A stretch of DNA of 64,000 nt from Escherichia coli (GTDB taxonomy: Bacteria > Pseudomonadota > Gammaproteobacteria > Enterobacterales > Enterobacteriaceae). The notes beneath the pieces are model-generated. The model ran no database searches. It saw only the letters and a list, made by a program, of their open reading frames with translations, and had not been told where the DNA came from. Shown one piece after another: positions 50,821 to 55,655 of the stretch (its first letter is position 1; each line of letters starts with the position of its first letter). The DNA is taken from assembly GCF_001677475.2 (NCBI RefSeq), contig NZ_CP015229.1, one strand, 5' to 3'. Both the position numbers and the translations under genes were made by a program.

Positions 50821-51153
50821 ATGGCTGGTTGGTTTGAACTCAGTAAGAGCAGTGATAATCAGTTCCGGTTTGTGCTAAAAGCGGGCAATGGTGAGACTAT
50901 CCTCACCAGCGAGCTGTATACCTCAAAAGCCTCTGCGGAAAAGGGCATTGCGTCGGTGCGTAGCAACAGCCCGCAAGAAGAACGCTATGAGAAAAAAACG
51001 GCAAGCAACGGCAAATTCTATTTCAATCTGAAAGCCGCCAATCATCAAATTATCGGCTCCAGCCAGATGTACGCCACCGCGCAATCTCGTGAAACCGGAA
51101 TTGCCTCCGTTAAAGCCAATGGCACAAGCCAGACGGTGAAAGACAATACGTAA
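50821..51153 (+). CDS. yegP: UPF0339 (tandem DUF1508) protein YegP
   Basis: ORF 50782..51153 trimmed to MAGWFELSKSSDNQFRFVLKAGNGETILTSELY... (110 aa) with RBS aaggag; two internal repeats (FRFVLKA.., FYFNLKA..). Confidence 0.85.
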   Translation: MAGWFELSKSSDNQFRFVLKAGNGETILTSELYTSKASAEKGIASVRSNSPQEERYEKKTASNGKFYFNLKAANHQIIGSSQMYATAQSRETGIASVKANGTSQTVKDNT

Positions 51154-51299
51154 TTACGATGCCGGGCGTGGGTTGTTGGCGTCCGGCGCTTTACCAGATA
51201 CCCCCACAGCGCTACAATGCCCGCCCTTAAAGTGGGGGCACTCCCCTAACCGCTTCATCAGGTGAAGCGGATCTGACCTGTCATCAGAACGAGAGAATT

Positions 51300-52661
51300 A
51301 TGTTTAAACCGGAACTCCTTTCCCCGGCGGGAACGCTGAAAAATATGCGTTACGCTTTCGCTTATGGCGCAGATGCTGTTTATGCGGGCCAGCCGCGTTA
51401 CTCCCTGCGTGTGCGCAACAACGAATTCAACCACGAAAATCTTCAGCTCGGCATCAATGAAGCCCACGCGCTGGGGAAAAAGTTTTATGTCGTGGTCAAC
51501 ATTGCACCGCACAACGCCAAGCTGAAAACTTTTATCCGTGACCTGAAACCGGTGGTGGAAATGGGGCCGGATGCGCTGATTATGTCCGATCCAGGGCTGA
51601 TTATGCTGGTGCGTGAGCACTTCCCTGAAATGCCGATCCATCTCTCGGTACAGGCTAACGCCGTGAACTGGGCGACGGTGAAATTCTGGCAGCAAATGGG
51701 CCTGACCCGCGTGATCCTCTCTCGCGAGCTGTCGCTGGAAGAGATTGAAGAGATCCGCAATCAGGTGCCAGATATGGAGATCGAAATCTTCGTTCACGGC
51801 GCGCTGTGCATGGCCTACTCCGGTCGCTGCCTGCTCTCTGGCTATATCAACAAGCGCGACCCGAACCAGGGCACCTGCACCAACGCCTGCCGCTGGGAGT
51901 ACAACGTCCAGGAAGGGAAAGAAGATGACGTTGGCAACATCGTACACAAGTACGAGCCGATTCCGGTGCAAAATGTTGAGCCGACGCTGGGTATCGGCGC
52001 GCCAACCGACAAAGTGTTTATGATCGAAGAAGCCCAGCGTCCGGGCGAGTATATGACCGCGTTTGAAGATGAGCACGGCACTTACATCATGAACTCGAAA
52101 GATCTGCGCGCCATCGCCCATGTAGAACGCCTGACCAAAATGGGCGTGCATTCGCTGAAAATCGAAGGTCGTACCAAATCTTTCTACTATTGCGCACGCA
52201 CCGCGCAGGTTTACCGTAAAGCTATCGATGACGCCGCTGCGGGCAAACCGTTCGATACCAGCCTGCTGGAAACTCTGGAAGGTCTGGCGCATCGTGGCTA
52301 TACCGAAGGTTTCCTGCGTCGTCATACTCACGACGATTATCAGAACTACGAATACGGTTATTCAGTTTCTGACCGCCAGCAGTTTGTTGGTGAGTTTACC
52401 GGTGAGCGCAAGGGGGACCTCGCGGCGGTAGCGGTGAAAAATAAATTCTCCGTTGGCGACAGCCTGGAGCTGATGACGCCGCAAGGCAACATTAACTTTA
52501 CCCTTGAGCACATGGAAAACGCCAAAGGCGAAGCTATGCCGGTAGCACCAGGCGATGGTTATACTGTGTGGCTCCCGGTGCCGCAGGATCTTGAGCTAAA
52601 TTACGCGCTGCTGATGCGTAATTTCTCCGGGGAAACCACGCGTAACCCCCACGGTAAGTGA
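51300..52661 (+). CDS. trhP: Peptidase U32-family protein YegQ / TrhP (tRNA 5-hydroxyuridine synthesis)
   Basis: 453-aa ORF MFKPELLSPAGTLKNMRYAFAYGADAVYAGQPRYSLR...; U32 family. Confidence 0.85.
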   Translation: MFKPELLSPAGTLKNMRYAFAYGADAVYAGQPRYSLRVRNNEFNHENLQLGINEAHALGKKFYVVVNIAPHNAKLKTFIRDLKPVVEMGPDALIMSDPGLIMLVREHFPEMPIHLSVQANAVNWATVKFWQQMGLTRVILSRELSLEEIEEIRNQVPDMEIEIFVHGALCMAYSGRCLLSGYINKRDPNQGTCTNACRWEYNVQEGKEDDVGNIVHKYEPIPVQNVEPTLGIGAPTDKVFMIEEAQRPGEYMTAFEDEHGTYIMNSKDLRAIAHVERLTKMGVHSLKIEGRTKSFYYCARTAQVYRKAIDDAAAGKPFDTSLLETLEGLAHRGYTEGFLRRHTHDDYQNYEYGYSVSDRQQFVGEFTGERKGDLAAVAVKNKFSVGDSLELMTPQGNINFTLEHMENAKGEAMPVAPGDGYTVWLPVPQDLELNYALLMRNFSGETTRNPHGK

Positions 52662-52691
52662 TTAATTTCGATTATTTTTCCCGGATGGAAA

Positions 52692-52713
52692 ATTCTTAGA
52701 AACCGATCACATA
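52692..52713 (+). promoter_or_regulatory. Candidate CRP site of the cyaR promoter
   Basis: One good half-site TCACA (52707-11) with a weak partner ttaga; centred about 43 bp upstream of the cyaR 5' end; -10-like tatcat at 52733-38. Confidence 0.35.
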
Positions 52714-52745
52714 CAGCTGCATTTATTAAGGTTATCATCCGTTTC

Positions 52746-52832
52746 GCTGAAAAACATAACCCATAAAATGCTAGCTGTACCAGGAACCACCTCCTTAGCC
52801 TGTGTAATCTCCCTTACACGGGCTTATTTTTT
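52746..52832 (+). ncRNA. cyaR: CyaR (RyeE) Hfq-dependent sRNA
   Basis: gctgaaaaacataacccataaaatgctagctgtaccaggaaccacctccttagcctgtgtaatctcccttacacgggcttatttttt matches my memory of CyaR and ends in a terminator hairpin (gtgtaa...ttacac) plus T6. Confidence 0.85.
52806..52832. other. Phage P2-type attachment core, apparently unoccupied attB, at the cyaR 3' end
   Basis: aatctcccttacacgggcttatttttt is the reverse complement of the P2 att core AAAAAATAAGCCCGTGTAAGGGAGATT (from memory); no ogr-like or other phage ORF follows. Confidence 0.55.
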
Positions 52833-53160
52833 ATGCATAAGCCCTATCCCTGATAACCGTCTTCCATTGACCACATCGATAGAATCCCCCTTCATAGCAC
52901 GATGCCTTTCACTTAACGGCATCGTGCTCGCCCAGGTTCCGGCTACGCACGGCCAGAACGCGCATGTTTGACGCTTACCAAAAAATGAACCTAAAGCATT
53001 GGAATATTTTTGACATCATTTTCTGATGGCGGCATAGAATAAAAATTCTGCTTTAGTTTCATCTATCTGTTTGTCATTATTACTCACATTCAATAATGGT
53101 GTTGAAGAACATCTATCAGAGATAAAAATGAATGTGTCCATGGTAGTCTTGAATCTATTC

Positions 53161-53478
53161 TCACTCTCCACATTTGAATGTCAGACGAGCGACGCCATGT
53201 AATCCTGCACCTTCTGTCTTCAGGTCAACTATCTGCATTTTTTTGCCCTGAGTAACACAGAAATGGGCTGCATCATTTTTTACTATATTTTCTGCACCAG
53301 AAATTCTGCCCCTGGCTAAAGAAGCTTCGGCTTCGGTGTAGTATTGGTTATCGAGTTTACGCTGAATATTACTTTTATATGCAAGGCCAAATTTACCGAT
53401 ACTTGTCTCATCATTATGCACAGCACAACCAGACATAAGAAAAACACTAATTAATGATATAGCAGCTATCTTGTTCAC
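53161..53478 (-). CDS. yegR: Small putative lipoprotein, probably YegR
   Basis: ORF 53161..53538; probable GTG start giving (M)NKIAAISLISVFLMSGCAV... (105 aa) with lipobox LMSGC; position next to yegS. Confidence 0.55.
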   Translation of the reverse strand: MNKIAAISLISVFLMSGCAVHNDETSIGKFGLAYKSNIQRKLDNQYYTEAEASLARGRISGAENIVKNDAAHFCVTQGKKMQIVDLKTEGAGLHGVARLTFKCGE

Positions 53479-53894
53479 CTCACCTTCCCCCATTAAATAC
53501 CAACGACACTCTCTAGTGTTTAAATATAATAATGGCATGATTATTATAATTGAATAGGATTATAATAAATATTCTGTACAACATTTCCTACATAAGTAGG
53601 AATTACGGACATGGAGGCCCTTCCGGGTAACTCCATGGGGGGCTTTAATATATTTTGAATAGTATATTGAAGATGCCACTGTTTAGTTGAATTATTAGGT
53701 ATATGCTCTTTTTTGAAATTTATCGGTAGCTGCCGTTAGTATTCGCTGTCCCCATTGCAAGCTCCTGGTGGTAACCACTGAATCCTCCATACTTGAACTG
53801 ACTTTTTATCCTCCGACTTTCATCCTGTTCTGACTCCACCTTTTCTTTTCTGCTCTACACTATCTACAGACCAATCATAAAGGCACATACGATC

Positions 53895-54794
53895 ATGGCA
53901 GAATTTCCCGCCAGCTTACTGATTCTTAATGGCAAAAGTACTGACAATTTACCATTGCGCGAAGCAATTATGCTTTTGCGTGAGGAAGGAATGACGATCC
54001 ATGTGCGGGTCACCTGGGAGAAAGGTGATGCCGCACGATTTGTAGAGGAGGCCCGGAAGTTGGGCGTCGCAACGGTGATTGCCGGTGGTGGCGATGGCAC
54101 CATTAATGAAGTTTCTACGGCGTTGATTCAGTGTGAGGGGGATGACATACCCGCGCTGGGAATTTTGCCATTAGGAACCGCCAATGATTTTGCCACCAGT
54201 GTAGGGATTCCTGAGGCACTGGATAAGGCACTGAAACTGGCAATTGCCGGTAACGCCATTGCAATAGATATGGCGCAGGTCAACAAACAAACCTGTTTTA
54301 TTAATATGGCGACAGGCGGGTTTGGGACGCGTATTACCACAGAAACGCCGGAAAAATTAAAAGCCGCGCTGGGTGGCGTCTCTTACATCATTCATGGCTT
54401 AATGCGTATGGATACTCTGCAACCGGACCGTTGTGAAATCCGCGGTGAAAACTTTCACTGGCAAGGTGACGCCCTGGTCATTGGTATTGGTAACGGGCGT
54501 CAGGCCGGTGGCGGTCAACAATTGTGCCCGAACGCGTTAATTAACGATGGCTTGCTGCAACTGCGCATTTTTACCGGCGATGAAATTCTTCCGGCTCTCG
54601 TATCAACCTTAAAATCTGACGAAGATAACCCGAATATTATCGAAGGCGCTTCGTCGTGGTTTGATATACAAGCCCCACACGAAATCACTTTTAATCTTGA
54701 TGGCGAACCGTTGAGTGGGCAAAACTTCCATATTGAAATACTTCCGGCGGCGTTACGTTGTCGATTACCACCAGATTGTCCATTATTGCGTTAA
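53895..54794 (+). CDS. yegS: Lipid kinase YegS (DAGK_cat family)
   Basis: 299-aa [35 protein letters not shown]...GGDGTINEV... Confidence 0.9.
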
Positions 54795-54832
54795 TCAAAC
54801 TATTCTTTCTTGAACCAGGGAGAATCCGTAAT

Positions 54833-54866
54833 GCCGGATGCGGTGTAAACACCTTATCCGGCATAC
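54833..54866. repeat. REP element
   Basis: gccggatgcggtgtaaacaccttatccggcat between yegS and gatR. Confidence 0.7.
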
Positions 54867-54875
54867 AGAACAATA

Positions 54876-55655
54876 CTACACCGTAATTAATTTTACCCGT
54901 GTCTTCTGCAATGCCAGTTTATCCACCTCTGACACAGCATCATCGGTAATAATAATGTCGATTTTTTCGATTGGCAGTACCTGATTAAAACCACGACGGT
55001 TAAATTTCGATGAATCGAGAACGGCAATCACTTTATTAGCGGCGGTGACCATCGCCCCGCTAATCGAATAACCTTCATTAAAGGTCGTAATACCATTAAC
55101 CGCATCAATACCATCAGCACCGACAAACATTAAATCGGCATTAATATCCTGCAATGAACGCTCGGCAATGGAACCATGCATCGAGCGCGTTTTATGGCGG
55201 ACGGTGCCACCACAGACGACCAGAGTAATGTCTTTATTTTCGGAAAGGGCAAACGCTGCCGGGAGACTATTGGTAATCACCGTGATATTTTTGGCGGTCA
55301 TTAATCCTTCAGCGATAAGCATCGTCGTACTTCCGCTGTCGAGAATAACGGTCATCCCTTCGTGGATCATTTTGACTGCCGCCTGCGCTATTCTGTTTTT
55401 TGGCGCGCTGGCGAGCTGAAATCGCTCTTTAAACCCGACTTCCTGGGTCTCGATTTCACTATTACCAGACATTATTTTCGCCGCACCGCCATGAAAGCGC
55501 GTAACCACGCCTTTTTGTTCGAGAAAGCGCAAATCGGCACGGATTGTCGCTTCCGAGGCAGCAAATACTCCCGCCAGATCCTGAACAAGCACGGTTCCCT
55601 GTTCATTCACTAATTGGATGATCTTATTCCTTCGCTCGAATGAATTCATCGTCAT
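54876..55655 (-). CDS. gatR: DeoR-family galactitol operon repressor GatR, uninterrupted
   Basis: 259-aa ORF MTMNSFERRNKIIQLVNEQGTVLVQDLAGVFAASEATIRADLRFLEQKGVV...; continuous HTH plus sugar-binding domain; no IS sequence. Confidence 0.85.
   Translation of the reverse strand: MTMNSFERRNKIIQLVNEQGTVLVQDLAGVFAASEATIRADLRFLEQKGVVTRFHGGAAKIMSGNSEIETQEVGFKERFQLASAPKNRIAQAAVKMIHEGMTVILDSGSTTMLIAEGLMTAKNITVITNSLPAAFALSENKDITLVVCGGTVRHKTRSMHGSIAERSLQDINADLMFVGADGIDAVNGITTFNEGYSISGAMVTAANKVIAVLDSSKFNRRGFNQVLPIEKIDIIITDDAVSEVDKLALQKTRVKLITV

Follow-up and report, generated by a model that had tools for sequence, protein, structure and literature searches.

A stem-loop without a U-run on the 3' side of yegR lies within a fossil P2-like prophage next to the small RNA gene cyaR of Escherichia coli

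Stem-loops located on the 3' side of bacterial genes are known from several systems. Phage P2 possesses, beside the P arm of its attachment site and on the 3' side of a leftward gene, a G+C-rich stem-loop that is annotated in AF063097 as 'rho-independent terminator for ogr transcript and F operon'. The 3'-end protective stem-loops of Rho-terminated transcripts are stable structures that lack a U-tract and are located downstream of a gene (Dar and Sorek 2018, PMC6061677). REP/BIME elements are G+C-rich imperfect palindromes present in intergenic regions between convergent genes. Finally, the 3' end of cyaR is the attB site of P2, and in K-12 it is also the locus of the cryptic remnant PR-X (ogrK-yegZ). 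Here we analyze a palindrome located between cyaR and yegR in a window of E. coli DNA, by which we mean the whole stretch of 64,000 nucleotides that was studied, and this palindrome shares features with all these systems without being identical to any of them. Like the P2 terminator, it forms a G+C-rich stem-loop on the 3' side of a leftward gene and beside a P arm; in contrast to it, the palindrome has no U-run, has a loop of 11 nt, shows no sequence similarity with the P2 terminator, and is probably read through into yegZ/ogrK in K-12, as the data discussed below suggest. Like the stem-loops described by Dar and Sorek (PMC6061677), it is stable, free of a U-tract and positioned downstream of a gene, and it is situated in a region of mapped plus-strand Rho termination; unlike those stem-loops, no RNA 3' end has been mapped to its base under the published conditions searched. 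It resembles the REP/BIME elements in composition and in its intergenic position between convergent genes, but it exists in one copy only and lacks a match to the REP consensus. Lastly, although it belongs to the same locus as attB and PR-X, it lies outside both, and it is present whether the site is occupied by a prophage or remnant or is empty.

The order of the genes at the locus is yegQ/trhP, cyaR, the palindrome, yegR and yegS, and the coordinates of all features are given in Table 1. The palindrome reads AGCACGATGCC-TTTCACTTAAC-GGCATCGTGCT and is thus a perfect 11-bp inverted repeat, with 7 G-C and 4 A-T pairs in the stem and an 11-nt loop within which two inner A-U pairs are possible in some alleles only. 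A preliminary description, made from the sequence alone, had already reported the palindrome, at 52895-52927, which is off by one base. Its claims that the stem-loop is stable, that no U-run adjoins it and that it does not look like an intrinsic terminator are confirmed by our results. Firstly, the calculated folding energies are -21.3 kcal/mol for the plus strand (z -6.5) and -25.2 kcal/mol for the minus strand (z -5.2), and 0 of 200 shuffled sequences folded as strongly. Secondly, a U-run adjoining the palindrome is absent on both strands; past the stem, the next ten bases read CGCCCAGGTT (plus strand) and AUGAAGGGGG (minus strand). Thirdly, a terminator consensus scan of the region 52600-53950 detected the cyaR terminator only, for which the K-12 Term-seq 3' end at 2167199 provides a positive control, and nothing at the palindrome. 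Of the characteristics of intrinsic terminators, the palindrome therefore has the G+C-rich stem (of about 5-12 bp), but neither the 3' U-run nor the loop of 3-8 nt, and without a U-run it is not a canonical intrinsic terminator. Since a perfect palindrome is symmetric, its sequence reads alike for both strands and does not reveal on which of them it would act.

Table 1. Positions of the features at the cyaR-yegR locus, numbered from the first base of the window.
Feature	Position	Strand	Basis or remark
yegQ/trhP	51300-52661		
cyaR small RNA gene	52744-52829	+	Rfam RF00112, 100.7 bits, E 3.9e-20
cyaR intrinsic terminator	stem 52797-52824, then T-run		Terminator scan
P2 attachment core AATCTCCCTTACACGGGCTTATTTTTT	52806-52832		Overlaps the cyaR terminator; 27/27 identical to the attP core in P2 AF063097
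ogr-proximal attP arm relic	52833-52885		IHF-site region mostly deleted in E. coli
Palindrome	52896-52928 (left arm 52896-52906, loop 52907-52917, right arm 52918-52928)		
Neighbouring imperfect hairpin, GTTCCGGC...GGCCAGAAC	52936-52959	-	Folding
Lineage-specific 170-bp segment	52986-53155	-	Remains of the N-terminal part of a second lipoprotein gene, 3' of yegR
yegR, small lipoprotein gene (Pfam PF27694)	53161-53481	-	ORF list, homologous-locus annotation
int-proximal arm relic (Cox-site side) and degenerate second att core	53745-53807		Right junction of the fossil
yegS	53895-54794		

The presence of a perfect inverted repeat does not necessarily point to a function. According to first-order Markov simulations, 0.28 perfect inverted repeats with arms of 11 bp or more and loops of 3-20 nt are expected in the 64-kb window, versus 2 that are observed, and a few dozen chance palindromes of such a size would be expected per whole genome. 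On the basis of these numbers, the palindrome is by itself no proof of function.

With respect to its distribution, a query of 511 bases across the spacer finds matches in 5423 of the 5426 complete E. coli genomes, and the segment around the palindrome has a median of one occurrence in each genome. In K-12 MG1655, the palindrome occupies 2,167,894-2,167,926, and both the ogrK-yegZ remnant and a second, partial copy of the core lie to its left. The flank with the palindrome is thus common to K-12 and almost all E. coli, and the earlier view that it lies in a segment replacing the K-12 prophage remnant was mistaken. The search for other genomic copies that the preliminary description had proposed showed that the palindrome is restricted to a single locus: no second copy of an arm beyond chance exists in the 64-kb window, the 79 matches of the exact-stem pattern in IMG/VR are all this locus, and the same applies to the metagenome matches (92/92). 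We considered whether the palindrome could be phage-borne, and rejected this since the 79 IMG/VR matches, as well as 2 matches in a phage collection, are records of P2-like prophages that overrun into the bacterial flank. Membership of the REP or another repeat family, which the preliminary description had named as a possible refutation, is likewise rejected on the grounds of the single locus per genome and the lack of a match to the REP consensus. An Rfam scan of 51000-55000 at E <= 1 returned CyaR and a weak REP-like hit (naRNA4) only, and nothing at the palindrome. The REP-like hairpin in the window is a different one; it is located at 54828-54866, between yegS and gatR, and is a partial naRNA4 match of 36 bits, which is below the gathering score.

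The site beside cyaR is the P2 attachment site, as follows from the identity of all 27 core bases with those of P2 attP. In the P2 literature, this site at the cyaR 3' end is called locI. The site is in current use by P2-like phages: prophage-bearing records split exactly at the core, and the order in lysogens is int, int-side arm, core, palindrome, yegR. The distance from the 27-bp core to the palindrome on its right is 64 nt. An 8-bp inverted repeat at 52820-52844 (GGGCTTAT and ATAAGCCC), which overlaps the 3' half and the T-run of the cyaR terminator, originated with the sequence that took the place of the phage's IHF site.

The entire cyaR-yegS spacer (52833-53807), including yegR, is the fossil of a very old P2-like prophage. 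Several lines of evidence support this. First, the ogr-proximal arm next to the core contains a relic of the Int P arm, in which 20 of 28 bases are kept, including an exact 15-mer (CATTGACCACATCGA) at 52865-52879; the local alignment of this side to P2 has a score of 30, which was reached by 0 of 1000 shuffles. In the multiple alignment to P2 attP, Escherichia sp. MOD1-EC7003 was included as an intermediate, as it keeps the IHF-site region that E. coli lost by a 16-nt deletion. Second, a degenerate second core is present at 53781-53807. It has 18 of the 27 bases, and among the 127,948 positions of the window there are only 2 matches of at least 18/27, the other being the core itself. The adjacent int-proximal arm is a weak relic, whose alignment to P2 has a score of 22 that was reached by 18 of 1000 shuffles. 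Third, in a strain labelled E. coli E69 and in Citrobacter koseri the site is empty, i.e., cyaR is directly followed by the yegS upstream region and positions 52833-53802 are absent. Fourth, at the right junction an E. albertii-like contig keeps both arm and core in good condition, following cdtABC, and together with the empty sites this places the junction independently. Finally, the spacer, which is 975 bp long, has a GC content of 39%, versus 49-54% in its neighbours. Based on this, the classical 'unoccupied' P2 site beside cyaR corresponds to the left junction of an older P2-like prophage and not to virgin chromosome. As far as we could find, the views of the 'empty' P2 site as a fossil junction and of yegR as domesticated prophage cargo are new, and they may be of modest interest to specialists of phages and of E. 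coli genomes.

Within this fossil, the start of the palindrome is 16 nt beyond the Int P-arm relic, and in P2 the ogr terminator starts 7 nt beyond the P arm. The comparison with att-proximal P2 sequences, a check already proposed in the preliminary description, proved to be the informative one. The suggestion that the palindrome is a remnant recombination site holds only as regards this proximity, because it aligns to none of the sites of P2 attP in AF063097 (core, Int arm, IHF and Cox).

The yegR stop codon is at 53161-53163, and the palindrome lies on the 3' side of the gene. Homologues of YegR were found only at identities of at least 64%, all of them in Escherichia-like genomes. YegR has a strong PHROG match (phrog_21109), which probably stems from prophage predictions extending into the bacterial flank; we discounted it because no phage record encodes YegR beyond two that bear this flank. 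In K-12-type strains, the yegR stop codon is 63 nt upstream of the palindrome. In our window, the two are separated by the lineage-specific 170-bp segment, and the palindrome is 88 nt past the relic stop of a second lipoprotein gene. This segment is deleted in K-12 and O26, and the full-length query including it is covered in 879 of the 5426 genomes. It overlaps a 51-aa ORF on the minus strand (53016-53171), whose homologous part (53046-53156) shares 41% identity over 37 aa (tblastn) with the product of a 110-aa gene that follows yegR on the metagenome contig L020; the corresponding DNA alignment has a score of 44, which was reached by 0 of 500 shuffles. On this contig and on two others (L021 and L028), which represent a different locus, the gene for the 110-aa lipoprotein starts 4 nt after yegR. 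The 170-bp segment is thus a relic of the second gene, and the palindrome accordingly falls into the 3' untranslated region of a unit that ancestrally comprised two genes. A possible C-terminal relic of the second gene at about 53016-53045 is suggestive only (2 of 500 shuffles). Aligning the stop-codon region with L020 and L028 revealed no significant homology (scores of 14-16, reached by 435-825 of 1000 shuffles), and the palindrome has no sequence similarity with the 3' region of the yegR-orf2 loci elsewhere. It should be noted that yegR has been lost twice independently. In E. coli FDAARGOS_1077, a deletion from about 52956 to about 53430 removes yegR and leaves the palindrome intact. In Escherichia sp. 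MOD1-EC7003, a rearrangement has left just an inverted 67-bp piece of yegR, and the palindrome stem has three uncompensated changes.

The explanation that we tentatively prefer, with a probability of about 0.45, is that the palindrome forms a stem-loop at the yegR unit's 3' end that does not terminate transcription and was inherited with the fossil P2-like prophage, and that it would act as a 3'-end barrier or pause site if it is still active. According to this model, a leftward unit that originally comprised yegR and the now decayed second lipoprotein gene would hold the palindrome in its 3' untranslated region. This unit would be the surviving cargo of the prophage that once integrated at the cyaR 3' end, and the palindrome would occupy the place that in P2 belongs to the terminator of ogr, the last leftward gene, near the relic of the Int P arm. 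As it has no U-run, the hairpin would be unable to terminate transcription alone. If still working, it would most likely form an RNA barrier to 3'-to-5' exonucleases, and it might also pause RNA polymerase; in this way it could set or stabilise the ends of transcripts within the short stretch over which yegR and cyaR are transcribed toward each other, with the actual termination being left to Rho or to read-through.

The grounds for preferring the yegR-unit stem-loop are the fold, the position past the yegR stop codon, the place equivalent to that of the P2 terminator, the status of the spacer as an island, and the presence in almost all complete genomes. Additional support comes from the variation in the stem. 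We analyzed 96 sequences, obtained from a metagenome scan with its anchor placed outside the palindrome and from retrieved loci. Six of the 22 stem positions vary among them, always by transitions and with minor alleles of at most 6%, and the six variants keep a G-U pair in four cases on the minus strand and in two on the plus strand. Of the 11 loop positions four vary, two of them near 50% frequency; in the loop and flank there are intermediate-frequency variants and transversions, a difference from the stem that is not significant. The rarity of the stem transitions, the G-U retention on the minus strand and the stem changes in MOD1-EC7003, where yegR is destroyed, agree with a role in the yegR transcript. 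The anatomy, the fossil-prophage context, the restriction to one locus and the position downstream of yegR are shown by the data, while the RNA-level role, the strand on which the palindrome would act and its maintenance by selection are inferred. Among the three natures that the preliminary description had suggested, 'structured RNA element' is the one that fits best, unproven as it is. Against this explanation speak the size of the loop, as 11 nt is large for a terminator-type hairpin, as well as the unsupported constraint, the lack of compensation, of a mapped 3' end and of similarity to the P2 terminator. In itself, the palindrome is of little significance, as yet another old but ordinary U-run-free stem-loop in a region between convergent genes.

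Published data on transcription in K-12 are in line with a hairpin that does not terminate. On the one hand, yegR-yegZ is listed as one H-NS-bound operon (PMC3946193), and on the other hand, yegR and ogrK are co-induced on exposure to glutathione (PMC5811628). Together, these observations suggest that transcription proceeds through the hairpin in K-12, which fits a non-terminating structure. The TERMITe supplements have no entry for the palindrome locus, and searches of the literature on yegR and on P2 attachment sites returned regulon and operon mentions only. As yegR is poorly expressed in LB and M63, a missing Term-seq end in these media says little. No 3' ends are reported there between K-12 positions 2167199 and 2171800 (Adams et al. 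2021, PMC7815308).

A second explanation, nearly as likely as the yegR-unit stem-loop, is that the palindrome is a vestige without a present function, being either a decayed terminator or an accidental palindrome in the fossil prophage. The stem would still be perfect in most strains since the divergence among E. coli lineages is too small for 22 positions to have decayed. Several observations are consistent with this. Within E. coli, 4 of the 22 stem sites are polymorphic versus 24 of 70 in the flank (p = 0.19), and toward MOD1-EC7003, in which yegR is destroyed, stem and flank diverge alike (14% versus 17%, p = 1.0); selective constraint on the stem is thus statistically unsupported. There is no covariation either, as neither the palindrome nor the neighbouring hairpin has compensatory double changes among the 96 sequences. 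Given these p values and the lack of compensation, the stem does not display the pattern of a structured RNA under selection. The palindrome has remained intact in FDAARGOS_1077 despite the loss of yegR, the chance expectation is about 0.28 such palindromes per 64 kb, and no RNA 3' end is mapped. The neighbouring hairpin, in which a C.A mismatch on the plus strand is a G-U pair on the minus strand, is freely and highly polymorphic, with one haplotype combining 52943T with 52952G and another 52952A with 52943C. What the vestige explanation leaves to be accounted for is the origin of the perfect or near-perfect 11-bp stem that the common ancestor already had, and it is also at odds with the rare transitions in the stem versus the variants in loop and flank, a contrast that, as mentioned, is not significant.

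It is less probable still that the palindrome functions on the plus strand, as a pause site or a 3'-end-protecting structure that is part of a Rho-dependent termination zone. Such a zone would keep transcripts that run past the very highly expressed cyaR, or past int of a resident P2-like prophage, from going antisense into yegR. Rho terminates transcription of untranslated C-rich RNA and does not require a hairpin, which speaks against this possibility. The 55 nt upstream of the palindrome on the plus strand (52841-52895) contain 38% C and 11% G and thus resemble a rut site, and int in lysogens is transcribed toward the palindrome. Some direct support is provided by bicyclomycin data, in which a plus-strand region of Rho termination coincides with this stretch in K-12; it peaks at 2167873, 21 nt ahead of the palindrome (Rho score 3.19, p = 1.2e-6; PMC7815308, supplementary file 2). 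However, the Rho score was computed in 800-nt windows (PMC7815308), so that the position of the peak is coarse, and the peak is located upstream of the hairpin and not at its 3' base. Furthermore, there is no plus-strand Term-seq 3' end after 2167199, and four of the six stem variants break the pairing on the plus strand yet keep a G-U pair on the minus strand.

Another role that we consider improbable is that of a working insulator between the convergent genes yegR and cyaR. The gene yegR has been placed within the acid-resistance network controlled by EvgA (PMC5811628). When acid-responsive EvgA turns on yegR, minus-strand transcription would head to cyaR, 160-330 nt away, and the hairpin might govern the amount of antisense RNA that arrives at CyaR. 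If true, acid stress would be coupled, through a fossil phage terminator, to a small RNA controlled by cAMP-CRP.

The possibility that the palindrome is a site at the DNA level, either the operator of a dimeric regulator or a recombination site, is more remote than the previous ones. Its perfect dyad symmetry, the arms that vary less than the spacer between them, and the relics of Int and IHF sites close by would be compatible with such a site. However, the palindrome does not match the Int, IHF or Cox sites of P2 attP, no other copy of the half-site exists in the window beyond chance, and in viral contigs the exact stem is found at this locus only. We know of no nameable motif that fits 11-bp arms whose centres are 22 bp apart. 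In addition, the palindrome is located between two convergent 3' ends, away from promoters. Nothing in our analysis thus supports the 'protein-binding palindrome' of the preliminary description. A candidate sigma-54 promoter over the right arm (GGCA-N7-TCGC) was rejected, as its -12 base, G52930, is C in 40 of the 96 sequences.

Finally, it is very unlikely that the palindrome belongs to a small protein-coding gene, or to what once encoded the C terminus of the second lipoprotein: there is an ATG in both arms, and a 32-aa ORF (52824-52922, minus strand) and a 67-aa ORF (52768-52971, plus strand) are open in the window, but neither ORF matches a Pfam or PHROG family, loop variants freely alter residues 2 and 3 of the 32-aa ORF (L-S, I-S, L-R and L-C), and an alignment of the last 72 residues of the 110-aa protein gives no match across the palindrome that clearly exceeds shuffled controls, the best stretch (53023-52997, reached by 3 of 300 shuffles) being away from it.

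The att core at the cyaR 3' end is also associated with other DNA elsewhere. In Salmonella it is accompanied by an sseK/cesT effector island, and at four Kluyvera loci by about 800 bp of unrelated DNA. The cargo at this position thus varies from cdtABC, sseK/cesT or unrelated DNA to nothing at all, which indicates that the terminator of a small RNA has been repeatedly reused as an integration hot spot. On the other side of yegQ, the O26 strain RM8426 contains a parDE toxin-antitoxin system between yegP and yegQ (444-1038 of locus L003), which is absent from the corresponding region of the window (51154-51299). The longest perfect inverted repeat in the window has arms of 13 bp and is located at 25098-25130 (ATCAAATGCGCAG / GTTCAAA / CTGCGCATTTGAT).
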